Source: Escherichia coli (GTDB taxonomy: Bacteria > Pseudomonadota > Gammaproteobacteria > Enterobacterales > Enterobacteriaceae). Taken from it: a stretch of 64,000 nucleotides of DNA. The number at the start of each line of letters is the position of its first letter. Position 1 is the first letter of the stretch. The notes under the pieces are model-generated. The model had not been told where the DNA came from. It saw nothing but the letters and a program-made list of their open reading frames with translations, and did no database searches. The stretch is from assembly GCF_046105845.1 (NCBI RefSeq), contig NZ_CP151004.1. The stretch is one strand, 5' to 3'. Below, piece after piece: positions 1 to 64,000 of this stretch. Made by a program: the position numbers and the translations under genes.

Positions 1-527
1 TTCTGCGCCTGGCGTTCTTTGGCCCATTTATTGGTGCCATCGCGCGGTCGGTTGGTGGTGCTATTTCCGATAAATTCGGCGGAGTGCGGGTGACGTTGAT
101 CAACTTCATTTTTATGGCGATTTTCAGCGCCCTGCTGTTCCTTACCTTACCGGGCACAGGCTCCGGTAATTTCATCGCATTTTACGCCGTATTTATGGGG
201 TTGTTTCTGACCGCAGGTCTGGGAAGTGGTTCTACTTTCCAGATGATCGCCGTCATCTTTCGCCAGATAACCATTTATCGGGTGAAGATGAAAGGCGGTA
301 GTGATGAGCAAGCTCAGAGAGAAGCCGTCACCGAAACGGCGGCGGCTCTGGGCTTTATCTCAGCCATTGGCGCAGTGGGCGGCTTTTTCATTCCGCAGGC
401 GTTTGGCATGTCGCTCAATATGACCGGCTCTCCGGTAGGCGCGATGAAAGTGTTTTTAATCTTCTACATCGTTTGTGTGCTGCTGACCTGGCTGGTTTAT
501 GGTCGGCGGAAGTTCAGCCAAAAATAA
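1..527 (+). CDS. narU: nitrate/nitrite transporter NarU, C-terminal part (5' end outside window)
   Basis: Open frame runs from the window edge to the stop at 525-527; hydrophobic MFS-like C-terminus; sits immediately upstream of narZ as in the narU-narZYWV locus. Confidence 0.85.
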   Translation, partial: LRLAFFGPFIGAIARSVGGAISDKFGGVRVTLINFIFMAIFSALLFLTLPGTGSGNFIAFYAVFMGLFLTAGLGSGSTFQMIAVIFRQITIYRVKMKGGSDEQAQREAVTETAAALGFISAIGAVGGFFIPQAFGMSLNMTGSPVGAMKVFLIFYIVCVLLTWLVYGRRKFSQK

Positions 528-621
528 GAGATCGATGCCTGACACGTCTTATCAGGCTACAACCGTGTCGCACCCGACAAGGCATCAGATCCCAATTCAT
601 TCCTGGAGCAGGAGTTATGTC

Positions 622-3600
622 ATGAGTAAACTTTTGGATCGCTTTCGCTATTTCAAACAAAAGGGCGAAACCTTTGCCGATGGTCACGGACAGGTGATGC
701 ATAGCAACCGCGACTGGGAGGACAGCTATCGCCAGCGTTGGCAATTCGACAAAATCGTGCGTTCCACCCACGGTGTTAACTGTACAGGCTCCTGTAGCTG
801 GAAAATCTACGTTAAAAATGGTCTGGTGACCTGGGAAATCCAACAGACCGACTACCCGCGCACTCGCCCTGACCTGCCCAATCATGAACCTCGCGGCTGC
901 CCGCGTGGCGCAAGTTACTCCTGGTATCTTTACAGCGCTAACCGCCTGAAATACCCGCTCATTCGCAAACGACTGATTGAACTGTGGCGCGAAGCCCTCA
1001 AACAACACAGCGATCCGGTACTGGCGTGGGCATCGATTATGAACGATCCGCAAAAGTGCCTGAGCTACAAACAAGTGCGTGGGCGCGGCGGGTTTATCCG
1101 CTCCAACTGGCAGGAACTAAACCAGCTGATTGCCGCCGCTAACGTCTGGACCATCAAAACCTACGGCCCGGATCGCGTTGCCGGTTTCTCGCCGATCCCG
1201 GCGATGTCGATGGTTTCTTACGCCGCCGGAACACGTTATCTTTCACTATTAGGTGGCACCTGTTTAAGCTTCTACGACTGGTATTGCGACCTGCCGCCCG
1301 CCTCGCCGATGACCTGGGGCGAGCAAACCGACGTGCCAGAATCTGCCGACTGGTATAACTCCAGCTACATCATCGCCTGGGGGTCTAACGTACCGCAGAC
1401 ACGTACGCCGGACGCCCACTTCTTTACCGAAGTACGCTACAAAGGCACTAAAACCATCGCCATTACCCCTGACTACTCTGAAGTGGCCAAATTGTGCGAC
1501 CAGTGGCTGGCACCAAAACAAGGCACTGATAGCGCCTTGGCGATGGCAATGGGCCATGTGATTTTAAAAGAGTTTCATCTCGATAATCCCAGCGACTACT
1601 TTATCAACTACTGCCGCCGCTACAGCGACATGCCGATGCTGGTAATGCTGGAACCTCGCGACGATGGCAGCTACGTACCCGGGCGCATGATCCGCGCGTC
1701 TGACCTGGTAGATGGACTGGGCGAAAGCAACAATCCGCAGTGGAAAACCGTGGCGGTTAATACCGCAGGTGAACTGGTGGTGCCGAACGGTTCGATTGGT
1801 TTTCGCTGGGGAGAAAAAGGCAAATGGAATCTGGAATCTATTGCCGCCGGTACGGAAACCGAATTGTCATTAACCCTGCTTGGTCAACATGACGCCGTTG
1901 CAGGCGTGGCCTTCCCCTACTTTGGCGGCATTGAAAATCCGCATTTTCGTAGCGTAAAACATGATCCTGTCCTGGTGCGTCAATTACCCGTTAAAAACCT
2001 GACATTAGCCGATGGCAGCACCTGTCCGGTGGTTAGCGTTTATGATTTGGTACTGGCGAATTATGGCCTCGATCGCGGGCTGGAAGATGAAAACAGCGCG
2101 AAAGATTACGCTGAAATCAAACCGTACACCCCAGCCTGGGGTGAGCAAATTACCGGCGTGCCGCGCCAGTATATTGAAACCATCGCCCGTGAATTTGCCG
2201 ATACCGCCCATAAAACGCATGGGCGCTCGATGATTATCCTCGGTGCTGGCGTCAACCATTGGTATCACATGGACATGAACTACCGTGGGATGATCAACAT
2301 GCTGATCTTCTGCGGTTGTGTCGGGCAAAGCGGTGGCGGCTGGGCACACTATGTCGGTCAGGAAAAACTGCGCCCGCAAACCGGCTGGTTGCCACTGGCC
2401 TTTGCGCTCGACTGGAACCGACCACCGCGCCAGATGAACAGCACCTCGTTTTTCTACAATCATTCCAGCCAATGGCGCTATGAAAAAGTCTCTGCTCAGG
2501 AGTTACTTTCACCGATCGCCGATGCCAGTAAGTACAGCGGTCATCTGATTGATTTCAACGTTCGCGCCGAACGTATGGGCTGGCTACCTTCTGCGCCGCA
2601 GCTGGGGCGTAACCCGCTCGGGATTAAAGCTGAAGCCGACAAGGCCGGATTATCCCCCACAGAATTTACCGCCCAGGCGCTGAAATCGGGCGATTTACGC
2701 ATGGCCTGCGAACAACCAGATAGCGGCAGCAATCATCCGCGTAATTTGTTTGTCTGGCGTTCTAACCTGCTTGGCTCCTCCGGCAAAGGCCACGAGTATA
2801 TGCAGAAGTATCTGCTGGGGACCGAAAGCGGGATTCAGGGCGAGGAACTCGGTGCCAGCGACGGGATCAAACCGGAAGAAGTCGAGTGGCAAACTGCGGC
2901 GATTGAAGGCAAGCTCGACCTGCTGGTGACGCTCGACTTCCGTATGTCCAGTACCTGCCTGTTCTCCGATATCGTTCTGCCCACCGCCACCTGGTACGAA
3001 AAAGACGATATGAACACCTCGGATATGCATCCGTTTATTCATCCGCTTTCTGCGGCGGTCGATCCGGCGTGGGAATCACGCAGCGACTGGGAAATCTACA
3101 AAGGTATCGCCAAAGCCTTTTCGCAAGTGTGCGTGGGCCATCTTGGCAAAGAAACCGACGTGGTATTACAACCACTGCTGCATGACTCTCCGGCAGAACT
3201 CTCACAGCCGTGTGAAGTGCTCGACTGGCGCAAAGGCGAATGCGATCTGATTCCAGGTAAAACTGCGCCCAATATTGTGGCGGTGGAACGCGACTACCCT
3301 GCTACCTATGAACGCTTTACCTCGCTCGGGCCATTGATGGACAAACTTGGCAACGGCGGTAAAGGGATTTCGTGGAATACCCAGGATGAAATCGATTTCC
3401 TCGGCAAACTCAACTACACCAAGCGTGAAGGCCCGGCACAGGGGCGTCCGCTGATTGACACCGCCATTGACGCATCAGAAGTGATTCTGGCGCTGGCACC
3501 GGAAACCAACGGTCATGTTGCAGTCAAAGCGTGGCAGGCGCTGGGCGAGATAACCGGACGCGAACATACCCATCTGGCGCTGCACAAAGAGGACGAGAAG

Positions 3601-4362
3601 ATTCGCTTTCGCGATATTCAGGCGCAGCCACGTAAAATCATCTCCAGCCCCACATGGTCTGGTCTGGAAAGCGATCACGTCTCCTACAACGCCGGATATA
3701 CCAACGTTCATGAGTTAATTCCGTGGCGCACGCTGTCGGGACGCCAGCAGCTCTATCAGGATCATCCGTGGATGCGTGCTTTTGGTGAAAGCCTGGTGGC
3801 TTATCGCCCGCCTATCGACACCCGTAGCGTCAGTGAAATGCGCCAGATACCGCCAAACGGCTTCCCGGAAAAAGCACTTAACTTCCTGACGCCGCATCAG
3901 AAATGGGGCATTCACTCAACCTACAGTGAAAACCTGCTAATGCTGACCCTCTCTCGCGGTGGACCGATTGTCTGGATCAGCGAAACCGATGCCCGTGAAC
4001 TGACCATTGTCGATAACGACTGGGTGGAAGTGTTTAACGCCAACGGCGCGCTGACTGCCCGCGCGGTGGTCAGCCAACGTGTACCGCCGGGTATGACCAT
4101 GATGTATCACGCTCAGGAACGCATTATGAATATTCCTGGTTCGGAAGTAACTGGCATGCGCGGCGGCATTCATAACTCGGTCACCCGCGTTTGTCCGAAA
4201 CCAACGCATATGATTGGCGGTTACGCGCAGCTGGCCTGGGGCTTTAATTACTACGGCACCGTCGGCTCGAACCGTGACGAATTCATCATGATCCGCAAGA
4301 TGAAGAACGTTAACTGGCTGGATGATGAAGGTCGCGATCAGGTACAGGAGGCGAAAAAATGA
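622..4362 (+). CDS. narZ: respiratory nitrate reductase 2 (NRZ) alpha subunit, molybdoenzyme
   Basis: Track ORF 499..4362; true start taken at internal ATG (MSKLLDRFRYF...) giving 1246 aa; N-terminal HGVNCTGSCSW Fe-S motif typical of NarG/NarZ; stop overlaps narY start (ATGA). Confidence 0.95.
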   Translation: MSKLLDRFRYFKQKGETFADGHGQVMHSNRDWEDSYRQRWQFDKIVRSTHGVNCTGSCSWKIYVKNGLVTWEIQQTDYPRTRPDLPNHEPRGCPRGASYSWYLYSANRLKYPLIRKRLIELWREALKQHSDPVLAWASIMNDPQKCLSYKQVRGRGGFIRSNWQELNQLIAAANVWTIKTYGPDRVAGFSPIPAMSMVSYAAGTRYLSLLGGTCLSFYDWYCDLPPASPMTWGEQTDVPESADWYNSSYIIAWGSNVPQTRTPDAHFFTEVRYKGTKTIAITPDYSEVAKLCDQWLAPKQGTDSALAMAMGHVILKEFHLDNPSDYFINYCRRYSDMPMLVMLEPRDDGSYVPGRMIRASDLVDGLGESNNPQWKTVAVNTAGELVVPNGSIGFRWGEKGKWNLESIAAGTETELSLTLLGQHDAVAGVAFPYFGGIENPHFRSVKHDPVLVRQLPVKNLTLADGSTCPVVSVYDLVLANYGLDRGLEDENSAKDYAEIKPYTPAWGEQITGVPRQYIETIAREFADTAHKTHGRSMIILGAGVNHWYHMDMNYRGMINMLIFCGCVGQSGGGWAHYVGQEKLRPQTGWLPLAFALDWNRPPRQMNSTSFFYNHSSQWRYEKVSAQELLSPIADASKYSGHLIDFNVRAERMGWLPSAPQLGRNPLGIKAEADKAGLSPTEFTAQALKSGDLRMACEQPDSGSNHPRNLFVWRSNLLGSSGKGHEYMQKYLLGTESGIQGEELGASDGIKPEEVEWQTAAIEGKLDLLVTLDFRMSSTCLFSDIVLPTATWYEKDDMNTSDMHPFIHPLSAAVDPAWESRSDWEIYKGIAKAFSQVCVGHLGKETDVVLQPLLHDSPAELSQPCEVLDWRKGECDLIPGKTAPNIVAVERDYPATYERFTSLGPLMDKLGNGGKGISWNTQDEIDFLGKLNYTKREGPAQGRPLIDTAIDASEVILALAPETNGHVAVKAWQALGEITGREHTHLALHKEDEKIRFRDIQAQPRKIISSPTWSGLESDHVSYNAGYTNVHELIPWRTLSGRQQLYQDHPWMRAFGESLVAYRPPIDTRSVSEMRQIPPNGFPEKALNFLTPHQKWGIHSTYSENLLMLTLSRGGPIVWISETDARELTIVDNDWVEVFNANGALTARAVVSQRVPPGMTMMYHAQERIMNIPGSEVTGMRGGIHNSVTRVCPKPTHMIGGYAQLAWGFNYYGTVGSNRDEFIMIRKMKNVNWLDDEGRDQVQEAKK

Positions 4363-5903
4363 AAATACGTTCGCAAGTCGGCATGGTGCTTAACCTCGAT
4401 AAATGTATCGGCTGCCATACCTGTTCGGTGACCTGTAAAAACGTCTGGACCGGACGCGAAGGCATGGAGTACGCATGGTTTAACAACGTCGAAACCAAAC
4501 CGGGCATTGGTTATCCGAAAAACTGGGAAGATCAGGAAGAGTGGCAAGGCGGCTGGGTGCGTGATGTGAATGGCAAGATCCGCCCGCGTCTGGGCAGCAA
4601 GATGGGCGTAATAACCAAAATCTTCGCCAACCCGGTGGTGCCGCAGATTGATGATTACTACGAACCTTTCACCTTCGACTACGAACATTTGCATAGCGCA
4701 CCGGAAGGCAAACATATCCCTACTGCTCGCCCGCGTTCACTGATTGACGGCAAACGGATGGACAAAGTGATCTGGGGGCCAAACTGGGAAGAACTGCTGG
4801 GCGGCGAATTTGAAAAACGCGCCCGCGACCGCAACTTCGAGGCCATGCAAAAGGAGATGTACGGGCAGTTTGAAAACACCTTCATGATGTACCTGCCGCG
4901 CTTGTGCGAACACTGCCTCAATCCCAGTTGCGTGGCGACCTGCCCAAGCGGCGCTATCTACAAACGCGAAGAAGACGGCATTGTGCTGATCGATCAGGAT
5001 AAATGCCGTGGCTGGCGTTTGTGCATTAGCGGTTGTCCGTACAAAAAAATCTACTTCAACTGGAAAAGCGGCAAGTCAGAAAAATGTATCTTCTGTTACC
5101 CACGAATTGAGTCAGGCCAACCCACCGTGTGCTCAGAAACCTGCGTGGGTCGCATCCGGTATCTGGGCGTGCTGCTTTACGACGCCGACCGCATCGAGGA
5201 AGCGGCGAGCACCGAGCGCGAAGTTGACCTCTATGAACGCCAGTGCGAAGTGTTCCTCGATCCGCACGATCCCTCAGTGATCGAAGAAGCCCTGAAACAA
5301 GGTATTCCACAAAACGTGATTGAAGCTGCCCAGCGTTCGCCAGTCTACAAAATGGCGATGGACTGGAAACTGGCGTTACCGCTGCACCCTGAATACCGCA
5401 CCCTGCCGATGGTCTGGTACGTTCCTCCGCTGTCACCGATTCAGTCTTACGCTGATGCGGGCGGTTTGCCGAAAAGCGAAGGCGTGCTCCCAGCCATCGA
5501 GAGCCTGCGTATTCCTGTGCAATATCTCGCCAATATGTTAAGTGCTGGCGATACCGGTCCGGTACTGCGGGCGCTAAAACGGATGATGGCGATGCGCCAC
5601 TATATGCGTTCACAAACCGTGGAAGGCGTTACCGATACCCGCGCCATTGACGAAGTAGGCCTGAGCGTCGCCCAGGTCGAAGAGATGTATCGCTACCTCG
5701 CCATTGCCAACTATGAAGACCGTTTTGTCATTCCAACCAGTCATCGGGAAATGGCGGGCGATGCCTTCGCAGAACGCAATGGCTGCGGTTTTACCTTTGG
5801 CGACGGTTGCCACGGCTCGGACAGCAAATTCAACCTGTTCAACAGTAGCCGTATCGATGCCATCAACATCACCGAAGTGCGCGACAAAGCGGAGGGCGAA
5901 TAA
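4359..5903 (+). CDS. narY: respiratory nitrate reductase 2 beta subunit (Fe-S)
   Basis: 514-aa ORF with four ferredoxin-type Cys clusters (CIGCHTCSVTC, CEHCLNPSCVATCP, CRGWRLCISGCPYKK, CIFCYPRIESGQPTVCSETCVGR). Confidence 0.95.
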   Translation: MKIRSQVGMVLNLDKCIGCHTCSVTCKNVWTGREGMEYAWFNNVETKPGIGYPKNWEDQEEWQGGWVRDVNGKIRPRLGSKMGVITKIFANPVVPQIDDYYEPFTFDYEHLHSAPEGKHIPTARPRSLIDGKRMDKVIWGPNWEELLGGEFEKRARDRNFEAMQKEMYGQFENTFMMYLPRLCEHCLNPSCVATCPSGAIYKREEDGIVLIDQDKCRGWRLCISGCPYKKIYFNWKSGKSEKCIFCYPRIESGQPTVCSETCVGRIRYLGVLLYDADRIEEAASTEREVDLYERQCEVFLDPHDPSVIEEALKQGIPQNVIEAAQRSPVYKMAMDWKLALPLHPEYRTLPMVWYVPPLSPIQSYADAGGLPKSEGVLPAIESLRIPVQYLANMLSAGDTGPVLRALKRMMAMRHYMRSQTVEGVTDTRAIDEVGLSVAQVEEMYRYLAIANYEDRFVIPTSHREMAGDAFAERNGCGFTFGDGCHGSDSKFNLFNSSRIDAINITEVRDKAEGE

Positions 5904-7275: not shown

Positions 7276-7354
7276 TTTTCACCCTGGCCGGATAGCCCTT
7301 CGCTCTCCGGCCACTTGCAGGCTATGATAGTTCTCCAGCCACAGGAGAACGTTA

Positions 7355-8248: not shown

Positions 8249-8255
8249 AACCGTT

Positions 8256-8323: not shown

Positions 8324-8331
8324 GACATAAA

Positions 8332-9919: not shown

Positions 9920-9984
9920 AGAATCATATGCAGCGACCGGTTTTTTAAGCAATGTTTCCATATGAGTTAAAAGCACATTTTATT

Positions 9985-10140
9985 TCACGATTGTATATTC
10001 TTAGTGAAGATTAATTTATCCTCACCAACATCATAGTAATTGCGTATTATAGCTTCATTGATAAAGCCCTGTTTTGTATAAAATGCGCGGGCGGCACTAA
10101 AATCGATATGGCTGGAGGTCTCTACTAAAAGTAGTCTTGC
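9985..10140 (-). pseudogene. GNAT (RimI-like) acetyltransferase, C-terminal remnant only
   Basis: Minus-strand open frame without start codon translates to ...RLLLVETSSHIDFSAARAFYTKQGFINEAIIRNYYDVGEDKLIFTKNIQS*, matching the C-terminal acetyl-CoA-binding end of RimI-like GNATs; lies in an AT-rich tract. Confidence 0.45.
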
Positions 10141-10531
10141 GTGATTGGGACAGGTCAAGAAAAAGCAGTTTTGCAGTTTTTTATTTCAGGGCACAGTTGC
10201 GAAAATTGAATCCCTTATGGACTAATGTGAGAAAATTCCGAGGTATGACTGTTTTGATATAGTGGACAATCAAGCGTCTCGAATTAACAATGAATTTCAG
10301 GTGCCAAGCCTTACAATTTGTAGCATGACGGATATAGGACAACATTAGGAAATCGGACAGAAAATTCATCATAATAAAATGACAACTTATCTCTTTCTCT
10401 CACTTTCTGAGAAATTTCACAAAAGTATAAACTAAGCCAATATGCCTTTATATATAAAAAATACTCATGCTTATTTTTATCGGAAAAATCCAAAATTTTG
10501 TCAAGACCATCAAAAATATCTTTATCATGAT

Positions 10532-11448
10532 CTATATGTACTCTTGATGATGGATCGCTGTGGCGAACTTTTCTGCGGTTAAATCAGCAGAACTGATATA
10601 ATATCTGACCGTCATTTCTGGCTCTTTCTTTTGTTCTGCTATTATGGACCGAAAGGAGACTGCAACGCATAATTTCTTCAGTCCTTTCCATTCAAACGTG
10701 AAATCAATAAGTTCATCAGGGACATCGCAAACAATATGAAGACGGATTTCTTCTCTGCCGTGACTCTTTTCACTAATGGCGTAACTGTCATGTTCTGGAT
10801 TATTTAATTCTTTCAGTGGAAATTTTTCCTCAAAGGCTTTATTAAGCCGCCCCTGATTTCCTTTTACAGCGAATAAATAATCACCGCCCTGTTTTGTATC
10901 TTCTCTGCAATATCTTTCTGGCAACCCATCGCATCAGTTGTGATGATTTTTCCTTTAATATCCAGCATGTTAAGAAGTTCAGGGATAGCTGTAATTTCAT
11001 TGGATTTCTCATCCGTCCTGATCTGTCCGATGACCAGACTGTGCATTGTTGAGAACGCACTAATGACATGAATCGCTCCCTTGCGGCGACTCTTGTCATA
11101 AGAATGCCGGAGTGTTTTTCCATCAATTGCGATGACGTCTTTATCATCTGAAGAATGGCAGTCACGCATCCAGTTAATAAAGCACTCGTGAAATTTTGCA
11201 GGACTGATACAGGATACAACTCTGGCAATGGTATCGTGAACAGGAATACCATTATCAAAATTACCATATTGCTTCAAAAAATCGAGATGTGTTTCCCCAA
11301 AATCCTCTATATCTTCCCAGCCTTCTGCACCCGAAATAACGGCACAAATAGTCAACAGTAGAATATCCGATAATTTATGTTCCACTTTCCAGGCTTGTCT
11401 GTAATCGGGGATAATAGAAATATGTCCCATCAATTTTTTAAGTTCCAT
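10532..11448 (-). mobile_element. H-repeat-associated (ISAs1-family) transposase pseudogene, frameshifted and 3'-truncated (YdcC-like)
   Basis: Two overlapping minus-strand ORFs (10864..11448 and 10532..10924) together read [32 protein letters not shown]... and ...[27 protein letters not shown]..., characteristic of H-repeat proteins; a frameshift near 10890-10920 and loss of about the last 75 codons; surrounded by AT-rich sequence. Confidence 0.8.
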
Positions 11449-11836
11449 TTTGTTCTCCTTAATTATGTAAGGAGTATTTGATCATGTATAAGCAATAAAA
11501 ACAGCTTCAGGAAATAAGGAATATCGCAATTTTTAAACATAAAATGCGAATCGTTCAATACAAAAAAGCAGCGTTGCGTAATCTTTCCCTGATTAAATAC
11601 GCTACCGCCCTACCCTGATGACATGATCTGCACTGCACTATCATATCGACATGTTTCTCTACATGCGAAAAGATGTTTTATTTTTGGATTATATTAAATT
11701 GATATTTCATATAAAAAACGAAATTACATCAATCATATAAATAGTTGTACCAACTTTAATTACTATTCATAGCAAACAAATGGATATCCAGTTAACTACG
11801 CCAGTGATTCATTAACATTAACCTCCGGCATTATTG

Positions 11837-12454
11837 TTAAATAATTTCATTCCTTTTTAATACTTCTTGTAATTTCGGTAACTGACATACAGCATCAGCA
11901 ATCGCACTGATATTCGTAGCATTATCCTGAAACCATTCATGCCCCGGCCCCCATGTGCGCATGGTGCAGAGATAACAGTCCACCAGCGTTAGTTGCTCAC
12001 CAAAGGCATAAGGTTCAGCGGTCAATTGTGAATTCAGCCAGATATAAAGCGATTTGCGATATTCAATTACATTCCTCTTTAACTGTTCAGGCGCGTCAGG
12101 AGCCCAACGCTCAGGGTAATCGGCGAAAGTGAATGTTGGATAGACATTAGCAACCAGCCAGACCAATAGCCGTTGAAACTGCTGACGTTCGGCGCGCCCA
12201 AGCGGTGGCGCAAGGTCCGGGCGACGATCGAGAACCATCAATGCAATCGCCGCTGTCTCCGTCATAATCTCGTCATTTTCCAGCGCCAGTGTCGGAATCT
12301 GACACAACGGGTTCAGGGTTTTCAATAACTCGCGTGAAGTTCCCTCGTGGTCAAAACCACTGACATCAACGAACTGATAAGGAATATCAGCCAGTGTTAG
12401 CATCAGCTCACTGATTGTAGAGCCCCATCCGGGTACGCCATACACCTTAATCAT
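11837..12454 (-). CDS. yncG: glutathione S-transferase-like protein
   Basis: 205-aa ORF with GST N- and C-terminal domain features; synteny upstream of ansP. Confidence 0.85.
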   Translation of the reverse strand: MIKVYGVPGWGSTISELMLTLADIPYQFVDVSGFDHEGTSRELLKTLNPLCQIPTLALENDEIMTETAAIALMVLDRRPDLAPPLGRAERQQFQRLLVWLVANVYPTFTFADYPERWAPDAPEQLKRNVIEYRKSLYIWLNSQLTAEPYAFGEQLTLVDCYLCTMRTWGPGHEWFQDNATNISAIADAVCQLPKLQEVLKRNEII

Positions 12455-17739: not shown

Positions 17740-17747
17740 TTACCTTG

Positions 17748-28778: not shown

Positions 28779-29019
<241 letters not shown>

Positions 29020-32177: not shown

Positions 32178-33350
32178 ATGCGTCTGTTTTCTATTCCTCC
32201 ACCCACGCTACTGGCGGGGTTTCTGGCGGTATTAATTGGCTACGCCAGTTCAGCGGCAATAATCTGGCAAGCAGCGATTGTCGCCGGAGCCACCACTGCA
32301 CAAATCTCTGGCTGGATGACGGCGCTGGGGCTGGCAATGGGCGTCAGTACGCTGGCTCTGACATTATGGTATCGCGTACCTGTTCTCACCGCATGGTCAA
32401 CGCCTGGCGCGGCTTTGTTGGTCACCGGATTACAGGGACTAACACTTAACGAAGCCATCGGCGTTTTTATTGTCACCAACGCGTTAATAGTCCTCTGCGG
32501 CATAACGGGACTCTTTGCTCGTCTGATGCGCATTATTCCGCACTCGCTTGCGGCGGCAATGCTTGCCGGGATTTTATTACGCTTTGGTTTACAGGCGTTT
32601 GCCAGTCTGGATGGTCAATTTACGTTGTGTGGCAGTATGTTGCTGGTATGGCTGGCAACCAGGGCCGTTGCGCCGCGCTATGCGGTAATTGCCGCGATGA
32701 TTATTGGGATCGTGATCGTTATCGCGCAAGGTGACGTTGTCACAACTGATGTTGTCTTTAAACCCGTTCTCCCCACTTATATTACCCCTGATTTTTCGTT
32801 TGCTCACAGCCTGAGCGTTGCACTCCCCCTTTTTCTGGTGACGATGGCATCGCAAAACGCACCGGGTATCGCAGCAATGAAAGCAGCTGGATATTCGGCT
32901 CCTGTTTCGCCATTAATTGTATTTACTGGATTGCTGGCACTGGTTTTTTCCCCTTTCGGCGTTTATTCCGTCGGCATTGCGGCAATCACCGCGGCTATTT
33001 GCCAAAGCCCGGAAGCGCATCCGGATAAAGATCAACGTTGGCTGGCAGCTGCCGTTGCCGGCATTTTCTATTTGCTCGCAGGTTTGTTTGGTAGTGCCAT
33101 TACCGGGATGATGGCTGCCCTGCCCGTAAGTTGGATCCAGATGCTGGCAGGTCTGGCGCTGTTAAGTACCATTGGCGGCAGTTTGTATCAGGCGCTGCAT
33201 AATGAGCGTGAGCGAGACGCGGCGGTGGTGGCATTTCTGGTAACGGCAAGTGGATTGACGCTGGTCGGGATTGGTTCTGCGTTCTGGGGATTAATTGCCG
33301 GAGGCGTTTGTTACGTGGTGTTGAATTTAATCGCTCACAGAAACCGATAA
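32178..33350 (+). CDS. ydcO: BenE-family membrane transporter
   Basis: Track ORF 32121..33350; start at MRLFSIPPPTLLAG... gives 391 aa; polytopic membrane protein. Confidence 0.85.
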   Translation: MRLFSIPPPTLLAGFLAVLIGYASSAAIIWQAAIVAGATTAQISGWMTALGLAMGVSTLALTLWYRVPVLTAWSTPGAALLVTGLQGLTLNEAIGVFIVTNALIVLCGITGLFARLMRIIPHSLAAAMLAGILLRFGLQAFASLDGQFTLCGSMLLVWLATRAVAPRYAVIAAMIIGIVIVIAQGDVVTTDVVFKPVLPTYITPDFSFAHSLSVALPLFLVTMASQNAPGIAAMKAAGYSAPVSPLIVFTGLLALVFSPFGVYSVGIAAITAAICQSPEAHPDKDQRWLAAAVAGIFYLLAGLFGSAITGMMAALPVSWIQMLAGLALLSTIGGSLYQALHNERERDAAVVAFLVTASGLTLVGIGSAFWGLIAGGVCYVVLNLIAHRNR

Positions 33351-33384
33351 TAAAAAGCGCCATCTTACGATGGCGCGGCTGGAA

Positions 33385-54256: not shown

Positions 54257-54369
54257 CCGGACACGGTCTTGATGTGGACTGTAGATATTCAGTCCACATC
54301 TTAATCCGCTTACCTGTTTTCTATCGCTTTGTGCTCTTCCTTAAGCACAATCTGCGAGCGCCTGACTCG

Positions 54370-55230
54370 TTATTCTCGCGAAATACCATCCAACGTAGAC
54401 AACACTTCCTCAGAAAGATGCAATTTTTCAGCAGCCATATTCTCCCGTAAATGCGCAACAGAAGACGTCCCTGGGATCAGCAAAATATTCGGTGAACGTT
54501 GTAACAGCCACGCCAGCGCCACCTGCATTGGTGTTGCACCCAGGCTCGCAGCAACATCGGAAAGCGTGGAAGATTGCAGCGGCGTAAAGCCCCCGAGCGG
54601 AAAGAACGGCACGTAGGCAATGCCATCGCGGGCCAAATCATCAATCATTGCGTCATCAGCACGATGAGCAATGTTGTATTCGTTCTGCACACAGACGATT
54701 TCGGTAATCTTACGCGCCTCTGCAACCTGCGTCGGTGTGACGTTGCTCAGGCCAATATGTTTTACCAGGCCTTGTTGTTGCATCTCTGCCAGCACGGTCA
54801 GGCTGGCTTCAATCGATCCTTCCGCCGGGCCATGACCATCCCCCATCATGACGCGCAGGTTAACCACATCCAGTACGTCCAGACCGAGATTACGTAGATT
54901 ATCGTGCACCGCTTTTTGCAGCTCTGCCGGAGAAAATGCGGGCAACCAGGAAGCGTCCTCTCCACGCCGCGCACCAATTTTAGTGACAATTGTCAGGTCG
55001 TCAGAGTAAGGATGTAGCGCTTCGCGGATAATCTGATTGGTGACGTGCGGACCATAAAAGTCGCTGGTATCAATATGATTGACGCCCAATGCCAGCGCCT
55101 CGCGCAGCACGGTTATAGCAACGTGGCGATCTCTTGGGGGGCCAAAAACCCCAGGGCCTGCCAGTTGCATCGCGCCATAACCAAGACGGTTAACGGATTT
55201 TGTACCGAGAGTAAATGTGTTGCTGCTCAT
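54370..55230 (-). CDS. ydbC: aldo/keto reductase family oxidoreductase
   Basis: 286-aa ORF with AKR fold motifs. Confidence 0.85.
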   Translation of the reverse strand: MSSNTFTLGTKSVNRLGYGAMQLAGPGVFGPPRDRHVAITVLREALALGVNHIDTSDFYGPHVTNQIIREALHPYSDDLTIVTKIGARRGEDASWLPAFSPAELQKAVHDNLRNLGLDVLDVVNLRVMMGDGHGPAEGSIEASLTVLAEMQQQGLVKHIGLSNVTPTQVAEARKITEIVCVQNEYNIAHRADDAMIDDLARDGIAYVPFFPLGGFTPLQSSTLSDVAASLGATPMQVALAWLLQRSPNILLIPGTSSVAHLRENMAAEKLHLSEEVLSTLDGISRE

Positions 55231-55460
55231 CGCACCCTGCCCTGTAGTAAAACGGATTAAGAAAAATCAGTATAGAAACGAAAAGAGATAAATAATGCGA
55301 AGGCGTAAACAAGATTACTGGATGAGTTGCTCTATTGTCCTTGAAGACACCAAACCAAAACGCCTAAAGCATCGCATCCGGCAATAAAAAACCGCAACCT
55401 GTATCAGCGTTGCGGTTTGTGTATCACATGCTAAAAATTAGAACGTCCAGCATCAGGACG

Positions 55461-56051
55461 TTACTGTTTCGGTCGCAGATTCTCATCAAATACCAGGCGT
55501 TTCCTGCCAGGTTCAACTTCCCGCAATGGCTCGACTTGATGTAACGTCTGCTTACAGCGTGTCACCAGCACCTGGTACTCATGCGTACCCTGCTTTTTCC
55601 ATGCCAACTCCTGCTCACTGAGTTCACGAATCGCTTTCGCCGGGCTGCCGACAATCAGGTAATTAGCTGGCATTTCTGCTTTGGCTTTCACAAATGCGGA
55701 TGCGCCAACAATGCTGTTCTCGCCAATCACCGCACCGTCTATCACTACCGCGTTCATTCCCACTAATGCATTGCGGCGGATAATGCAGCCGTGAAGGATA
55801 GCGCTATGACCAATATGTCCATCTTCTTCCACGACAGTATCCTGCTCGGGAAAACCGTGCATAACGCAATTATCCTGAATGTTCGCGCCATTTTTCACCA
55901 CGATACGATCAAAATCGCCACGCAGGCTGGCATTTGGCCCAACGTAAACGCCCTTGCCGAGAATAACATCGCCGATCAATACCGCTGTCGGATGAACAAA
56001 ACTCTCTTGTGGTACAACCGGAGTCAGACCGTCTATCTGATAAATTGGCAT
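55461..56051 (-). CDS. paaY: hexapeptide-repeat (gamma-carbonic-anhydrase-like) thioesterase PaaY
   Basis: 196-aa [50 protein letters not shown]...; intact, although the rest of the paa cluster is not present in the window. Confidence 0.85.
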
Positions 56052-56179
56052 AACGCCTCCTGTTCAATATTCAAGCCGCCAAAACGTTGAAAATACAGGC
56101 TTCCCGGCGCAGGCAATTCACCGACCGAGGTTTCACCTTTTTCACTAACGAACGCTAAAGCAGCAGGCGCTACGCGCTG
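56033..56179 (-). pseudogene. paaX: paaX remnant: last about 48 codons of the phenylacetate repressor
   Basis: Minus-strand frame ends ...[49 protein letters not shown], the PaaX C-terminus; the N-terminal part of the track ORF (to 56326) is unrelated and is antisense to the feaR fragment. Confidence 0.7.
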
Positions 56180-56392
56180 ATAAAGTTTGCCGATAAAGGT
56201 TTGGTAGTCGCGCAATATATCCGTAACCGTCGTCTCGATTTTTGTGCAGATGCGATTCGCCATGCCGCAGATGATGAAAAACTGGCAGGCATTGGCTTTC
56301 ATTGGGGATTTTCCGACCAGAGTCATTTTTCAACGGTATTTAAGCAACGCTTTGGGATGACGCCAGGCGAGTATCGACGTAAATTCCGCTAA
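56159..56392 (+). pseudogene. feaR: AraC-family regulator remnant, C-terminal HTH only (feaR-like by position)
   Basis: Open frame begins right after a stop at about 56156 and reads ...DFCADAIRHAADDEKLAGIGFHWGFSDQSHFSTVFKQRFGMTPGEYRRKFR*, a typical AraC second HTH; no N-terminal domain; abuts the paaX remnant. Confidence 0.6.
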
Positions 56393-56890: not shown

Positions 56891-56897
56891 CATCGCC

Positions 56898-59719: not shown

Positions 59720-59926
59720 GGGTAGTTAATATCCTGATTTAGCGAAAAATTAAGCATTCAATACGGGTATTGTGGCATGTTTAACCGTTCAGTTGAAGGT
59801 TGCGCCTACACTAAGCATAGTTGTTGATGAATTTTTCAATATCGCCATAGCTTTCAATTATATTTGAAATTTTGTAAAATATTTTTAGTAGCTTAAATGT
59901 GATTCAACATCACTGGAGAAAGTCTT

Positions 59927-60916
59927 ATGAAACTCGCCGTTTATAGCACAAAACAGTACGACAAGAAGTACCTGCAACAGGTGAACGAGTCCTTTGGCTT
60001 TGAGCTGGAATTTTTTGACTTTCTGCTGACGGAAAAAACCGCTAAAACTGCCAATGGCTGCGAAGCGGTATGTATTTTCGTAAACGATGACGGCAGCCGC
60101 CCGGTGCTGGAAGAGCTGAAAAAGCACGGCGTTAAATATATCGCCCTGCGCTGTGCCGGTTTCAATAACGTCGACCTTGACGCGGCAAAAGAACTGGGGC
60201 TGAAAGTAGTCCGTGTTCCAGCCTATGATCCAGAAGCCGTTGCTGAACACGCCATCGGTATGATGATGACGCTGAACCGCCGTATTCATCGCGCGTATCA
60301 GCGTACTCGTGACGCCAACTTCTCTCTGGAAGGTCTGACCGGCTTTACTATGTATGGCAAAACGGCAGGCGTTATCGGTACCGGTAAAATCGGTGTGGCG
60401 ATGCTGCGCATTCTGAAAGGTTTTGGTATGCGTCTGCTGGCGTTCGATCCGTATCCAAGTGCGGCGGCACTGGAACTCGGTGTGGAGTATGTCGATCTGC
60501 CAACCCTGTTCTCTGAATCAGACGTTATCTCTCTGCACTGCCCGCTGACACCGGAAAACTACCATCTGTTGAACGAAGCCGCCTTCGATCAGATGAAAAA
60601 TGGCGTGATGATCGTCAATACCAGTCGCGGTGCATTGATTGATTCTCAGGCGGCAATTGAAGCGCTGAAAAATCAGAAAATTGGTTCGTTGGGTATGGAC
60701 GTGTATGAGAACGAACGCGATCTGTTCTTTGAAGACAAATCCAACGACGTGATCCAGGATGACGTGTTCCGTCGTCTGTCTGCCTGCCACAACGTGCTGT
60801 TTACCGGGCACCAGGCATTCCTGACAGCAGAAGCACTGACCAGTATTTCTCAGACTACGCTGCAAAACTTAAGCAATCTGGAAAAAGGCGAAACCTGCCC
60901 GAACGAACTGGTTTAA
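59927..60916 (+). CDS. ldhA: fermentative D-lactate dehydrogenase (2-hydroxyacid dehydrogenase family)
   Basis: 329-aa ORF with NAD-binding GxGxxG (GVIGTGKIG) and catalytic residues. Confidence 0.95.
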   Translation: MKLAVYSTKQYDKKYLQQVNESFGFELEFFDFLLTEKTAKTANGCEAVCIFVNDDGSRPVLEELKKHGVKYIALRCAGFNNVDLDAAKELGLKVVRVPAYDPEAVAEHAIGMMMTLNRRIHRAYQRTRDANFSLEGLTGFTMYGKTAGVIGTGKIGVAMLRILKGFGMRLLAFDPYPSAAALELGVEYVDLPTLFSESDVISLHCPLTPENYHLLNEAAFDQMKNGVMIVNTSRGALIDSQAAIEALKNQKIGSLGMDVYENERDLFFEDKSNDVIQDDVFRRLSACHNVLFTGHQAFLTAEALTSISQTTLQNLSNLEKGETCPNELV

Positions 60917-60922
60917 TCTTGC

Positions 60923-60950
60923 CGCTCCCCTGCATTCCAGGGGAGCTTAT
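60923..60950 (+). terminator. intrinsic terminator after ldhA
   Basis: gctcccctg-cattc-caggggagc hairpin followed by ttattc. Confidence 0.5.
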
Positions 60951-61026
60951 TCAGATAATCCCCAAAGACCTTTCATCCTCTATTCTTAAAATAGTCCTGA
61001 GTCAGAAACTGTAATTGAGAACCACA

Positions 61027-61449
61027 ATGAAGAAAGTAGCCGCGCTCGTTGCGCTAAGCCTGCTGATGGCGGGATGTGTAAGTAATGACAAAATTGCTGT
61101 AACCCCAGAGCAGCTACAGCATCATCGCTTTGTGCTGGAAAGCGTAAACGGTAAGCCCGTGACCAGCGATAAAAATCCGCCAGAAATCAGCTTTGGTGAA
61201 AAGATGATGATTTCCGGCAGCATGTGTAACCGCTTTAGCGGTGAAGGCAAACTGTCTAATGGTGAACTGACAGCCAAAGGGCTGGCAATGACCCGTATGA
61301 TGTGCGCTAACCCGCAGCTTAATGAACTCGATAACACCATTAGCGAAATGCTGAAAGAAGGTGCACAAGTGGATCTGACCGCGAACCAGTTAACGCTGGC
61401 GACCGCGAAACAGACATTAACTTATAAGCTAGCGGATTTAATGAATTAA
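61027..61449 (+). CDS. hslJ: heat-shock lipoprotein HslJ (META domain)
   Basis: Track ORF 61015..61449; start at MKKVAALVALSLLMAGC (lipobox) gives 140 aa. Confidence 0.85.
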   Translation: MKKVAALVALSLLMAGCVSNDKIAVTPEQLQHHRFVLESVNGKPVTSDKNPPEISFGEKMMISGSMCNRFSGEGKLSNGELTAKGLAMTRMMCANPQLNELDNTISEMLKEGAQVDLTANQLTLATAKQTLTYKLADLMN

Positions 61450-61712
61450 TAGCTGCCACAGCTCCCGGCGGCAAGTGACTGTTCGCTACAGCGTTTGCCG
61501 TTGGGTAATGCACACATCCCAATCGCCGTACCATCCAGTTGACGGGCAACAGAAAGCGAACCGCCGATCATTGCACAATTTGCTTCTCCACTACTGGACA
61601 TCGACGCTTTTAAACCTGGCGCTACGTGCGCCGCAGTCGCCTGCTGAACAGGTTCACTACTACACGCCGACAACAATAAAGCGGCACACCCTACCCAAAA
61701 CGCTGCTCGCAT
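61446..61712 (-). CDS. ydbJ: small periplasmic DUF333 protein
   Basis: 88-aa ORF with lipoprotein-like signal (LLLSAC). Confidence 0.75.
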   Translation of the reverse strand: MRAAFWVGCAALLLSACSSEPVQQATAAHVAPGLKASMSSSGEANCAMIGGSLSVARQLDGTAIGMCALPNGKRCSEQSLAAGSCGSY

Positions 61713-61985
61713 CTTTTCTTCCTCTGATCTTCAAGCCAAACGACACCGCCATAAATAATAGGCAGCACAGAGGGCGACGTCGAGAGCTGTCCTGCGCGTT
61801 GCCCCGCATTTTTACTTTTTTATGGCTATTTTTTTGCCCTCTGTTTGATCAAAACATTCATTACGCTGATGTGGGGGACACAAAAGCGAAAATGCAGAAG
61901 AAAGCCATTTGCTAAAATTGAAAGATAACTACTGGGCGCGCAGCAATTTCGTGCGCCCCTCATTTGCGCAATGTAAGGGTGTCAT

Positions 61986-64000
61986 ATGATTACTATTGAC
62001 GGTAATGGCGCGGTTGCTTCGGTGGCGTTTCGCACCAGTGAAGTTATCGCCATCTACCCTATTACCCCCAGTTCCACGATGGCAGAACAGGCTGATGCAT
62101 GGGCAGGAAACGGCTTAAAGAACGTTTGGGGAGACACACCACGCGTGGTTGAAATGCAGTCGGAAGCGGGTGCTATCGCTACCGTGCATGGCGCTTTGCA
62201 GACGGGTGCCCTTTCAACATCGTTTACGTCATCGCAGGGTTTGCTGCTGATGATCCCGACGCTGTACAAACTGGCAGGCGAACTGACGCCATTTGTCCTG
62301 CATGTAGCGGCACGTACCGTTGCCACACATGCACTCTCTATTTTTGGCGATCATTCCGACGTTATGGCGGTGCGCCAGACGGGTTGCGCGATGTTGTGTG
62401 CAGCAAACGTCCAGGAAGCGCAAGACTTTGCTCTTATTTCGCACATCGCGACGCTGAAGAGTCGCGTGCCATTTATTCATTTCTTTGATGGTTTCCGCAC
62501 GTCCCACGAGATCAATAAAATTGTCCCGCTGGCCGATGACACTATTCTTGAACTGATGCCGCAGGCCGAAATTGATGCTCATCGCGCCCGGGCACTCAAC
62601 CCGGAACATCCGGTGATCCGCGGTACGTCCGCCAATCCTGATACTTATTTCCAGTCTCGCGAAGCCACCAACCCATGGTACAACGCGGTCTATGACCATG
62701 TTGAGCAGGCGATGAATGATTTCGCTGCCGCGACAGGTCGTCAGTATCAGCCGTTTGAGTATTACGGGCATTCGCAAGCGGAACGGGTGATTATCCTGAT
62801 GGGCTCTGCCATTGGTACCTGTGAAGAAGTGGTTGATGAACTGCTAACCCGTGGCGAAAAAGTCGGCGTGCTGAAAGTTCGCCTGTACCGTCCCTTCTCC
62901 GCCAAACACTTGCTACAAGCTCTGCCGGGATCCGTACGCAGCGTGGCGGTACTGGACAGAACCAAAGAACCAGGTGCCCAGGCAGAACCGCTCTATCTGG
63001 ATGTGATGACCGCACTGGCAGAAGCCTTTAATAATGGCGAGCGCGAAACCCTGCCCCGTGTCATTGGTGGGCGCTATGGTCTTTCATCCAAAGAATTTGG
63101 CCCGGACTGTGTACTGGCGGTATTTGCCGAGCTCAACGCGGCTAAACCGAAAGCGCGCTTTACGGTTGGTATTTACGATGATGTGACCAATCTGTCACTG
63201 CCGTTGCCGGAAAACACCCTGCCAAACTCGGCGAAACTGGAAGCCTTGTTTTATGGCCTTGGCAGTGATGGCAGCGTTTCCGCGACCAAAAACAATATCA
63301 AGATTATCGGTAATTCCACGCCGTGGTACGCACAGGGCTATTTTGTTTACGACTCCAAAAAGGCGGGCGGCCTGACGGTTTCTCACCTTCGCGTGAGCGA
63401 GCAGCCGATTCGTTCCGCTTATCTCATTTCCCAGGCTGATTTTGTTGGCTGCCACCAGTTGCAGTTTATCGATAAATATCAGATGGTTGAACGTTTAAAA
63501 CCTGGCGGCATTTTCCTGCTCAACACGCCGTACAGCGTAGATGAAGTGTGGTCGCGCTTGCCGCAGGAAGTTCAGGCCGTGTTAAACCAGAAAAAAGCGC
63601 GCTTCTATGTGATTAACGCGGCGAAAATCGCCCGCGAATGTGGCCTGGCGGCCCGTATTAATACCGTCATGCAGATGGCTTTTTTCCATCTGACGCAAAT
63701 TCTGCCTGGCGATAGCGCCCTCGCAGAATTGCAGGGTGCGATTGCCAAAAGTTACAGTAGCAAAGGTCAGGATCTGGTGGAGCGCAACTGGCAGGCTCTG
63801 GCGCTGGCGCGTGAATCCGTAGAAGAAGTTCTGTTGCAGCCGGTTAATCCGCACAGCGCCAATCGACCGCCTGTGGTTTCCGATGCCGCTCCTGATTTCG
63901 TGAAAACCGTTACCGCGGCGATGCTCGCCGGGCTTGGTGATGCCCTCCCCGTTTCGGCGCTGCCGCCAGACGGCACCTGGCCGATGGGCACCACGCGCTG
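61986..64000 (+). CDS. ydbK: pyruvate:flavodoxin/ferredoxin oxidoreductase, N-terminal part (3' end outside window)
   Basis: ATG at about 61986 opens a frame to the window end (MITIDGNGAVASVAFRTSEVIAIYPITPSS...), the PFOR N-terminus; not in the track because no stop lies inside the window. Confidence 0.85.
   Translation, partial: MITIDGNGAVASVAFRTSEVIAIYPITPSSTMAEQADAWAGNGLKNVWGDTPRVVEMQSEAGAIATVHGALQTGALSTSFTSSQGLLLMIPTLYKLAGELTPFVLHVAARTVATHALSIFGDHSDVMAVRQTGCAMLCAANVQEAQDFALISHIATLKSRVPFIHFFDGFRTSHEINKIVPLADDTILELMPQAEIDAHRARALNPEHPVIRGTSANPDTYFQSREATNPWYNAVYDHVEQAMNDFAAATGRQYQPFEYYGHSQAERVIILMGSAIGTCEEVVDELLTRGEKVGVLKVRLYRPFSAKHLLQALPGSVRSVAVLDRTKEPGAQAEPLYLDVMTALAEAFNNGERETLPRVIGGRYGLSSKEFGPDCVLAVFAELNAAKPKARFTVGIYDDVTNLSLPLPENTLPNSAKLEALFYGLGSDGSVSATKNNIKIIGNSTPWYAQGYFVYDSKKAGGLTVSHLRVSEQPIRSAYLISQADFVGCHQLQFIDKYQMVERLKPGGIFLLNTPYSVDEVWSRLPQEVQAVLNQKKARFYVINAAKIARECGLAARINTVMQMAFFHLTQILPGDSALAELQGAIAKSYSSKGQDLVERNWQALALARESVEEVLLQPVNPHSANRPPVVSDAAPDFVKTVTAAMLAGLGDALPVSALPPDGTWPMGTTR

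Follow-up and report, generated by a model that had tools for sequence, protein, structure and literature searches.

An Escherichia coli narU-ydbK region lacking about 41 kb of K-12 sequence, chiefly as a result of old deletions marked by gene stubs

Introduction

How does a stretch of Escherichia coli chromosome keep the gene order of the K-12 ydbK-to-narU interval within 64,000 bp, when K-12 itself devotes 104,429 bp to it? The stretch considered here, called the window below, comprises 64,000 nucleotides of contig NZ_CP151004.1 (RefSeq assembly GCF_046105845.1). A first-pass annotation, made from the sequence alone, had noticed the compaction (against a K-12 length of roughly 100 kb), listed several K-12 segments as missing, and read the gaps as places where accessory DNA tends to insert.

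Part of this interval is known to vary among strains. The paa/fea/tynA genes form a "region of genomic heterogeneity" of E. coli between ydbH-ynbE-ydbL and ynbC-ynbD-azoR (Goldstone et al. 2016, PMC4951805; Elovaara et al. 2015, PMC4640556), in which partial paa deletions and a variable full-length ydbA have been described (PMC4951805; PMC4640556). A 33-kb area flanking tynA is missing from CFT073, and O157:H7 lacks tynA (PMC4640556). We conclude that the window is the narU-ydbK region minus some 41 kb of K-12 sequence, most of it lost in old deletions whose traces are gene stubs, and that its compaction is ordinary between-strain variation in a region whose variability has already been published. 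The junction-level description and the polarity of the changes come from the present analysis and not from PMC4951805 or PMC4640556.

Collinearity with K-12

A BLASTN "dot-plot" against MG1655 (NC_000913.3, positions 1,430,001-1,560,000) places the window on 1,438,770-1,543,198 in inverted orientation, as eight collinear blocks running from K-12 position 1,543,198 (inside narU) to 1,438,770 (inside ydbK). The gene order and the compaction had thus been recognized correctly, and the dot-plot check that the first-pass annotation proposed did find gaps. Seven K-12 segments, 41,322 bp in sum, have no counterpart in the window, and 909 bp of the window have none in K-12:

K-12 1,446,589-1,464,337 (17,749 bp): the 5' part of feaR, feaB, tynA, paaZ, paaA-K, and most of paaX
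K-12 1,465,063-1,474,004 (8,942 bp): ynbG and ydbA with IS2D and IS30C
K-12 1,475,085-1,482,129 (7,045 bp): ydbD, ynbA-C, and most of ynbD
K-12 1,503,161-1,504,908 (1,748 bp): exactly the annotated IS609
K-12 1,509,242-1,509,685 (444 bp): hicA and the 5' 178 bp of hicB
K-12 1,526,863-1,531,696 (4,834 bp): yncH, rhsE, ydcD, yncO, and yncI
K-12 1,532,714-1,533,273 (560 bp): the 3' end of ydcC and pptA, replaced by 624 unrelated bp

Nearly all segments that had been named as missing are indeed absent, with the exception of paaY, which is intact. The stubs of feaR, paaX, ynbD, ydbA, and hicB had been overlooked, as had the loss of pptA; the rhsE block is gone as stated, but a decayed ydcC copy survives.

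Identity to MG1655 is 96-98% block by block, the GC content of the window is 50.2%, and its identity to any of 5,426 complete genomes is at most 98.7%, so that none of the complete RefSeq genomes reaches 99%. The source is a rarely sequenced, non-K-12 E. coli lineage, as had been proposed for the non-K-12 part. Its exact HrpA protein is RefSeq WP_409023336.1. The exact RlhA protein is widespread, being present in unrelated lineages. All allele frequencies given below were counted among the 5,426 complete genomes. At the gap edges, the junction alignments show short microhomologies only.

Deletions that left gene stubs

The largest gap and the two that follow it lie close together, around an orphan paaY and an intact pdxI:

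56182..56392, plus strand: feaR' stub, the 3' 211 bp of feaR (K-12 alignment, gene-by-gene table)
56033..56184, minus strand: paaX' stub, the 3' 152 bp of paaX, adjoining feaR' (K-12 and junction alignments)
55461..56051, minus strand: paaY, intact, 196 aa, orphan (100% coverage, 98.1% identity, intact open reading frame)
55438..55460: junction of the 8.9-kb ynbG-ydbA deletion (junction alignment)
54370..55230, minus strand: pdxI (ydbC), intact, with an "island-type" 3' end (gene-by-gene table, junction alignment)
54257..54369: 113-bp azoR-pdxI spacer, made up of the azoR-ynbD intergenic region and a ynbD 3' stub of about 57 nt

The 17.7-kb fea-tynA-paa deletion has its junction at the left edge of feaR' (56182-56184), with a microhomology of about 2-3 bp. 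Strains 042, VCSW7, and Rb-50 have an identical junction, at which RefSeq annotates a partial HTH protein, and the deletion is found in 259 of the complete genomes (4.8%). The sole paa gene kept in the window is paaY, whose product has Hexapep domains. Since the gene is intact in every compared genome that has lost the other paa genes (4/4 deletion-bearing genomes), this thioesterase may have a paa-independent role; a pN/pS comparison of the orphan gene had few substitutions to draw on and is compatible with constraint as well as with relaxation. With the deletion, paaY follows the ydbH-ynbE-ydbL operon on the same strand, an arrangement in which it could be expressed by read-through.

At the ydbA site, the last 20 nt or so of ydbA, stop codon included, directly abut the stop codon of paaY. 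This sequence aligns with the 3' end of the K-12 ydbA pseudogene and with that of the intact autotransporter genes of 19KM1831 and ST2747; an 11-bp gap falls inside the stub, and microhomology is less clear there. The junction is common to 042 and VCSW7 and, save for point substitutions, to Rb-50, and the deletion is present in 2,032 complete genomes (37%).

The spacing of 113 bp between azoR and ydbC had been given correctly in the first-pass annotation. It results from a 7.0-kb deletion with its junction at 54367-54369 and a CGA microhomology, present in exactly 145 of the complete genomes (2.7%). The ynbD 3' stub is shared with 19KM1831 and ST2747, whereas the outgroups and a few E. coli strains such as Rb-50 have a pdxI-terminator-azoR junction without any ynbD sequence. 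Because of these island-free junctions, we take pdxI-terminator-azoR to be the ancestral state and the ydbD-ynbABCD island (46.6% GC, compared with 50.2% for the window) to have once been inserted there.

The fourth deletion is the smallest:

28779..29017, minus strand: hicB' stub, the C-terminal 79 codons, with the HTH_3 domain only (K-12 alignment, domain search)

Its junction, at 29017, shows 1-2 bp of microhomology. Coverage cannot be used to count this junction, since BLAST pieces 444 bp apart merge; we therefore relied on absence of the 444-bp hicA segment, seen in 1,170 of the 5,426 genomes (approximately 22%), and on sampled rows, where the junction appears in other genomes as single-piece 601-bp matches (6 of 40 evenly sampled rows). 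The hicA/hicB' junction allele is accordingly shared by at most about 22% of complete genomes.

The IS609 site and the Rhs locus

The fifth site is of a different kind:

33346..33353: empty IS609 target (in K-12 orientation, TTTTTAT and TATCGG are contiguous in the window)

In K-12 the element breaks the ydcO stop codon at a TTAT-type target, without duplication; the site in the window bears neither duplication nor scar. The window spaces ydcO and ydcL by 34 bp, against the 35 bp or so estimated beforehand. The empty site is found in 2,135 complete genomes (39%), and IS609 occupies the ydcL-ydcO site in about 55-60% of complete E. coli genomes, so it is not specific to K-12; the count of IS609 at ≥80% coverage (4,307) mixes in copies from other loci and was left out as a site frequency. 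This is the only clean insertion relative to the window; the four deletion gaps are not empty targets.

The sixth site, between yncG and yddH, holds variable vgrG/Rhs cargo in other strains. In the window it is reduced to three parts:

11592..11838: AT-rich spacer, from the ISAs1 end to the yncG stop codon (K-12 similarity stops at 11566)
10552..11591, minus strand: decayed ydcC, an ISAs1-family "H-repeat" transposase gene of the Rhs locus (K-12 alignment; DDE_Tnp_1_assoc and DDE_Tnp_1 domains)
9928..10551: window-only stretch of 624 bp in place of K-12 pptA and the ydcC 3' end (matches AF40 and ETEC1738)

A frameshift divides the ydcC copy into open reading frames of 194 and 130 aa, and 239 bp are missing from its 3' end; the terminus of the element (...TCTTTCCCTGA) is at about 11591. 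The stretch unmatched in K-12 (11567-11838) has 33% GC. Where K-12 holds yncH, rhsE, ydcD, yncO, and yncI, the spacer corresponds to the flank of a second, different ISAs1 copy beside yncG in strain AF40. The 624-bp stretch ends at the junction of a 679-bp internal deletion (between 10551 and 10552), with a GAT microhomology. On the minus strand of this stretch, a 57-aa open reading frame (9985-10158) by eye resembles the C-terminal end of an acetyltransferase, a candidate assignment.

Gene-by-gene comparison found no similarity to K-12 rhsE or ydcD in the window, and the 6.9 kb that hold the Rhs core in AF40 are absent. Of what makes up an Rhs element (a YD-repeat core open reading frame tipped by a C-terminal toxin, plus an immunity gene and, in many cases, vgrG upstream), the window has none, an ISAs1/H-rpt remnant being all that is left. 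The Rhs/T6SS-effector locus has collapsed to remnants. A possible cause, though no more than that, is that the two copies of ISAs1 in an Rhs locus like that of AF40 recombined homologously; the two copies in AF40 are, however, about 83% identical over the terminal 127 bp only and 63-68% elsewhere, and recombination between copies of this type leaves a 5-bp difference at the junction unexplained.

Origin of the gaps

The compactness is very probably the sum of independent, mostly old structural polymorphisms: four deletions in the ancestry of the lineage, an empty IS609 site, and the collapse of the Rhs locus. Truncated K-12 genes stand at the edges of four gaps (feaR', 211 bp, with paaX', 152 bp; ydbA, about 20 nt; ynbD, about 57 nt; hicB', 239 bp), and the state of the window is therefore derived from a K-12-like one by deletion. 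Breakpoint microhomologies are short (CGA, about 2-3 bp, 1-2 bp, and GAT), which indicates illegitimate recombination. By this mechanism, the lineage would have lost feaR'-feaB-tynA-paaZ...paaX' (17.7 kb), ynbG-ydbA (8.9 kb), ydbD-ynbABCD (7.0 kb), and hicA with the 5' part of hicB (0.44 kb), each loss leaving truncated gene stubs and three of them 1-3 bp of microhomology. IS609 would either never have been received or have been lost through replacement by an empty allele, and of the variable vgrG/Rhs toxin locus that separates yncG from yddH, collapse would have left a single decayed ISAs1 (H-repeat) copy.

Of the six junction alleles, five also occur in other E. coli, in varying company: of the alleles of the window, ST2747 has only the ydbD-ynbD deletion, and the fea-paa and ydbA deletions are found together in 042 and VCSW7; in 19KM1831 paa is entirely absent, and ydbA and hicAB are kept. 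As identical junctions occur in genomes that differ by 2-5% nearby, the deletion alleles probably passed from lineage to lineage when flanking core DNA recombined homologously. This spread, like the order of events, is an inference.

The opposite polarity, in which the window is the ancestral uninterrupted backbone and the K-12 extras are accessory DNA inserted at the gap points, is improbable for the region as a whole. It describes IS609 well, with its precise empty site, no duplication, and a TTAT target typical of IS200/IS605 elements. Historically it also holds for ydbD-ynbABCD, given the island-free pdxI-azoR junctions and the lower GC content of the island, and the yncG-yddH interval carries different vgrG/Rhs cargo by strain. 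However, gene stubs contradict it at four of the six sites: with the 3' ends of ynbD, ydbA, paaX, feaR, and hicB in its junctions, the window descends from an occupied state. The intact paaY argues against it too, as does the outgroup evidence for the paa-ydbA and ydbD-ynbD sites, which are either occupied in outgroups or show another, ancestral junction. Among the matches listed in a PdxI scan of GTDB representatives, from which the outgroups (L004-L008) were drawn, Pseudocitrobacter faecalis (L006) has paaK-paaX-paaY-ydbA-pdxI-azoR-hrpA, with paa-ydbA at the same position, and a divergent Escherichia (L005) has ydbA-pdxI-azoR. Nor do the gaps resemble integrase- or tRNA-associated islands: no tRNA or tmRNA gene was found within the 64-kb window, no integrase is annotated in the K-12 segments missing from it, and none of these marks a gap boundary. 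The first-pass reading of the gaps as insertion points thus fails at the four stub-bearing sites, stands for IS609, and has some truth in deeper time, through the former insertion of ydbD-ynbABCD and the variable yncG-yddH cargo. On that deeper scale the paa-ydbA block, too, may have been acquired as an island, since pdxI lies beside ydbL or ynbE in E. albertii (L004) and in an Enterobacter (L008), with no paa or ydbA.

Adaptive, coordinated streamlining, in which the losses of aromatic-amine catabolism, a toxin-antitoxin system, an autotransporter, and a T6SS effector were selected together as niche adaptation, is likewise improbable. All six variable sites of the 100-kb region are in their smallest known state together, a combination that no genome among the 5,426 complete ones shows, and the HrpA protein of the lineage is carried on contigs of at most 4.74 Mb, small for E. 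coli. Yet, the Rhs allele apart, each of them also turns up in unrelated lineages, combined differently, as would be the case for independent neutral or weakly selected polymorphisms, and one region cannot represent a whole genome.

That segments were lost or collapsed when the source genome was assembled can be dismissed with near certainty: repeats of the IS and Rhs kind are a frequent cause of broken or collapsed assemblies, and the yncG-ydcC' junction occurs in 0 of the 5,426 complete RefSeq genomes, but an independent short-read assembly (Logan ERR4034258) spans all junctions in one 58.5-kb contig, 99.99% identical over window positions 39548-63450 and 8290-22454 and with an equal coordinate offset at both ends, leaving the total length unchanged; five further assemblies have the collapsed yncG-ydcC'-yddH junction (at least six other assemblies of the same lineage in all), and the other junction alleles are present in 145 to 2,135 complete genomes.

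Implications and comparison with known systems

Read as a set of independent polymorphisms, the window yields a few practical points and otherwise matters little beyond bookkeeping. Its gene content suggests that the strain no longer has the HicAB toxin-antitoxin pair, the YdbA autotransporter, or the local Rhs effector and no longer grows on phenylethylamine and phenylacetate; it is predicted to be unable to use either compound as a carbon source. In annotations of this lineage, feaR', paaX', hicB', and ydcC' are best marked as fragments of pseudogenes. A segment missing relative to K-12 is not readable as an insertion hotspot unless its junctions are inspected, most gaps here being deletions with stubs, and IS609, an apparent K-12 "extra," is the commoner allele in E. 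coli.

The closest published parallel is the paa/fea/tynA heterogeneity region, which occupies the same chromosomal interval and shows the same type of presence/absence mosaic. The window differs in carrying one specific deletion allele (with breakpoints within feaR and paaX, sparing paaY), which 4.8% of complete genomes have, and it joins this allele with the ydbA and ydbD-ynbD deletions. K-12 IS609, an IS200/IS605-family element with a tnpA remnant (yncK) and tnpB (insQ), sits 3' of TTAT without duplication between ydcL and ydcO, and its insertion turns the ydcO stop codon TAA into TAT-TGA; the window has the exact unoccupied target, without the element. The type II toxin-antitoxin system HicAB lies at the same position in K-12, between yncJ and ydcR, and the stub matches the 3' end of hicB at 98.3% identity, but the deletion has removed the toxin gene along with the N-terminal half of the antitoxin, and only the DNA-binding HTH_3 part is left. 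Finally, K-12 RhsE and the vgrG-Rhs T6SS effector islands with their ISAs1 "H-repeat" share the yncG-yddH locus and a 96% identical ydcC-type ISAs1 with the window, which in place of an Rhs core, vgrG, or immunity gene retains about 0.9 kb of AT-rich remnants and a frameshifted, truncated ISAs1 copy.

Collinearity with K-12

The complete window was aligned by BLASTN with annotated K-12 MG1655 (NC_000913.3, 1,430,001-1,560,000), a check that the first-pass annotation had proposed. The alignment is collinear in reverse orientation, from the interior of narU (1,543,198) to the interior of ydbK (1,438,770), and this span occupies 104,429 bp in K-12 versus 64,000 bp here, close to the sizes given by the first-pass annotation (about 100 kb versus 64 kb). 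The collinearity is gapped: seven K-12 segments, 41,322 bp in sum, have no counterpart in the window, 909 bp occur only in the window, and the matched blocks share 95.7 to 98.3% identity.

Matched blocks (window; K-12)
Block 1: 1-9927; 1,543,198-1,533,274
Block 2: 10552-11566; 1,532,713-1,531,697
Block 3: 11839-29017; 1,526,862-1,509,686
Block 4: 29017-33349; 1,509,241-1,504,909
Block 5: 33350-54369; 1,503,160-1,482,130
Block 6: 54367-55446; 1,475,084-1,474,005
Block 7: 55460-56184; 1,465,062-1,464,338
Block 8: 56182-64000; 1,446,588-1,438,770

The absences listed by the first-pass annotation are real: tynA, feaB, and nearly the whole paa cluster; ydbA with IS2 and IS30; ydbD-ynbABCD; IS609/insQ; hicA; and the rhsE block. 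The short spacings hold as well (azoR-pdxI, 113 bp; ydcO-ydcL, 34 bp). The list needs amendment in that paaY is kept, remnants of feaR, paaX, hicB, and ydcC are present, and pptA is additionally missing. Gene by gene, all remaining K-12 genes of the interval are present and intact, minor exceptions aside. The missing segments have GC contents of 43.8% to 52.2%, versus 50.2% for the window, with a clear AT shift confined to ydbD, the rhsE block, and the ydcC-pptA piece. A search of the 64-kb window for tRNA genes found none, and no integrase is among the annotated features of the missing K-12 segments.

Identity to K-12 dips to 94% in yddE and yddH (7355-9919, beside the Rhs locus) and to 95.9% in hrpA (49548-53450), versus 97 to 99% elsewhere, which suggests imported or older alleles adjoining variable sites. 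gapC (45797-46798, plus strand) is an intact 333-amino-acid open reading frame, whereas the K-12 copy (b4493) is a pseudogene; it is also annotated as intact ("gap") in strains VCSW7, 19KM1831, and ST2747. ydcA (44661-44833, minus strand) has 173 bp versus 174 bp in K-12, a 1-bp difference that alters the C terminus; a 59-amino-acid YdcA-family frame is still called on the Logan contig described below.

A rarely sequenced lineage

No complete genome is at least 99% identical over 25-kb stretches, the best being the dog isolate 19KM1831 at 98.7%. HrpA of the window exactly matches RefSeq WP_409023336.1, annotated as Escherichia coli. In Logan assembly ERR4034258, a single 58.5-kb contig matches window positions 39548-63450 and 8290-22454 at 99.99% identity, and the coordinate offset is equal at both contig ends, so the intervening junctions all have the same length. 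The yncG-ydcC'-yddH arrangement recurs in two NCBI and three further Logan assemblies (99.5 to 99.99% identity). We conclude that the compaction is real and typical of a rarely sequenced lineage. The first-pass reading of a lineage distinct from K-12 thus stands; its reading of the gaps as points of accessory DNA insertion is not supported as stated, and this is the sole substantive correction. Relative to K-12, the gaps are mostly deletion scars rather than vacant insertion sites.

Junction anatomy

Deletion and insertion were judged from printed, aligned junction sequences. The 17.7-kb fea-paa gap runs from the interior of feaR to that of paaX, with 2 to 3 bp of microhomology; strains 042 and VCSW7 share this junction, and Rb-50 departs from it by point substitutions only. 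At the 8.9-kb ydbA gap, about 20 nucleotides of the ydbA 3' end, including the stop codon, abut that of paaY; in 19KM1831 and ST2747, which have intact autotransporter genes, the 3' end of these genes aligns with the stub, and the junction is also found in 042, VCSW7, and Rb-50. The 444-bp hic gap comprises hicA and the 5' part of hicB, with 1 to 2 bp of microhomology. By their junctions, all three gaps are deletions.

56182-56184: feaR'/paaX' fusion; 211 bp of feaR and 152 bp of paaX left
55461-56051, minus strand: paaY, intact, retained
28779-29017: hicB', last 79 codons, HTH_3 domain only

All four genomes compared that carry the fea-paa deletion retain an intact orphan paaY; pairwise pN/pS is 0.08 to 0.50 where such genomes are involved versus 0.07 between the two operon-bearing genomes, on counts too small to be decisive. 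The paaX'-paaY remnant now lies downstream of ydbH-ynbE-ydbL (ydbL, 56564-56890, minus strand) in the same orientation.

The 113-bp azoR-pdxI spacer consists of the azoR-ynbD intergenic region and about 57 nucleotides of the ynbD 3' end, and the 7.0-kb ydbD-ynbABCD gap joins 3 nucleotides past the pdxI stop codon at a CGA microhomology. Outgroups were taken from a PdxI scan of species-representative genomes, among the matches listed. In Pseudocitrobacter faecalis and in L005, a divergent genome labeled E. coli and about 90% identical to K-12, an alternative pdxI 3' end is followed by a hairpin terminator without ynbD sequence; E. coli Rb-50 (L090 4357-5264) shares this ancestral pdxI-terminator-azoR junction. 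These junction types therefore define three states: island-free ancestral, island inserted, and secondarily deleted. On this comparison, most E. coli carry the inserted island, whose ydbD start is also present in E. albertii, and the window has the secondary deletion; the pre-island junction is kept by a minority, Rb-50 and probably A25 and E2348/69, whose match patterns are nearly identical to that of Rb-50. In this minority, pdxI has a different 3' end and only 93% identity to the window pdxI; when the ydbD-ynbABCD island was inserted, the 3' end of pdxI and its terminator were therefore replaced. L005 (NZ_JAATUR010000058.1, "Escherichia coli strain SCPM-O-B-8794," a GTDB species representative) is only about 89.5% identical to both K-12 and the window across 10 kb (azoR to hokB); it probably represents a cryptic clade, or some other Escherichia species, catalogued as E. 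coli.

Between yncG and yddH, other strains carry vgrG, an Rhs core, immunity genes, and one or two ISAs1 copies. Strain AF40 has 6.9 kb that are absent from the window (a pentapeptide-repeat gene, the Rhs core, and the second ISAs1 copy), as are a further 679 bp, with a GAT microhomology at the latter junction. In place of pptA are 624 bp that match AF40 and ETEC1738 but not K-12.

10552-11448: ydcC' (rhsE-block H-repeat transposase), frameshifted, without its 3' end; DDE_Tnp_1 domains

The window ISAs1 terminus (...TCTTTCCCTGA) adjoins the same flank as the second ISAs1 copy of AF40, which suggests a deletion that joined the ends of two copies in direct orientation. We offer this mechanism as an inferred one, because the two AF40 copies share only about 83% identity at the relevant end and 5 bp at the junction are unexplained.

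At the 1,748-bp IS609 gap the site is precisely empty, with the K-12 flanks TTTTTAT and TATCGG directly joined in the window. The element inserts within the stop codon of ydcO (window 33348-33350; K-12 1,504,905-1,504,908), which reads TAA here and TAT-TGA in K-12, where IS609 lengthens YdcO by one residue.

Frequencies and combinations

Junctions among 5,426 complete RefSeq E. coli genomes
ydbD-ynbD deletion junction with ynbD stub: 145 (2.7%)
feaR'/paaX' junction: 259 (4.8%)
pdxI-paaY junction (no ydbA): 2,032 (37%)
Empty ydcL-ydcO site: 2,135 (39%)
444-bp hicA segment absent: 1,170 (22%)
yddH-ydcC'-yncG arrangement of the window: 0 (0%)

IS609 with both flanks occurs in 13 of 24 evenly sampled rows, so that the site is occupied in roughly 55 to 60% of genomes, which marks an old insertion and no K-12 peculiarity. 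A hic junction identical to that of the window was found in 6 of 40 evenly sampled rows. The stub-type azoR-pdxI junction and the ydbA and fea-paa deletions occur together in none of the 5,426 genomes. ST2747 has the ydbD-ynbD deletion only, and 042 and VCSW7 are deleted for fea-paa and ydbA. In 19KM1831 the ydbD-ynbD deletion is combined with complete absence of paa, but ydbA is intact and both hicAB and a large vgrG-Rhs island are retained. Such combinations are expected of independent polymorphisms, which recombination among strains would have reshuffled.

From K-12 annotations, the lineage is predicted to have lost catabolism of phenylethylamine via phenylacetate to the TCA cycle (tynA, feaB, paa), together with the YdbA autotransporter, the ydbD-ynbABCD genes, the HicAB toxin-antitoxin pair, PptA, and a local Rhs effector. 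Goldstone et al. (PMC4951805) found full-length ydbA to be variable and described several independent internal paa deletions, and Elovaara et al. 2015 (PMC4640556) reported that CFT073 lacks a 33-kb area around tynA and that O157:H7 isolates lack tynA. The variability of the region was therefore already known, and the compaction is ordinary pan-genome variation; the present analysis contributes the anatomy of the junctions, their polarity, and the frequencies for this particular combination of alleles.
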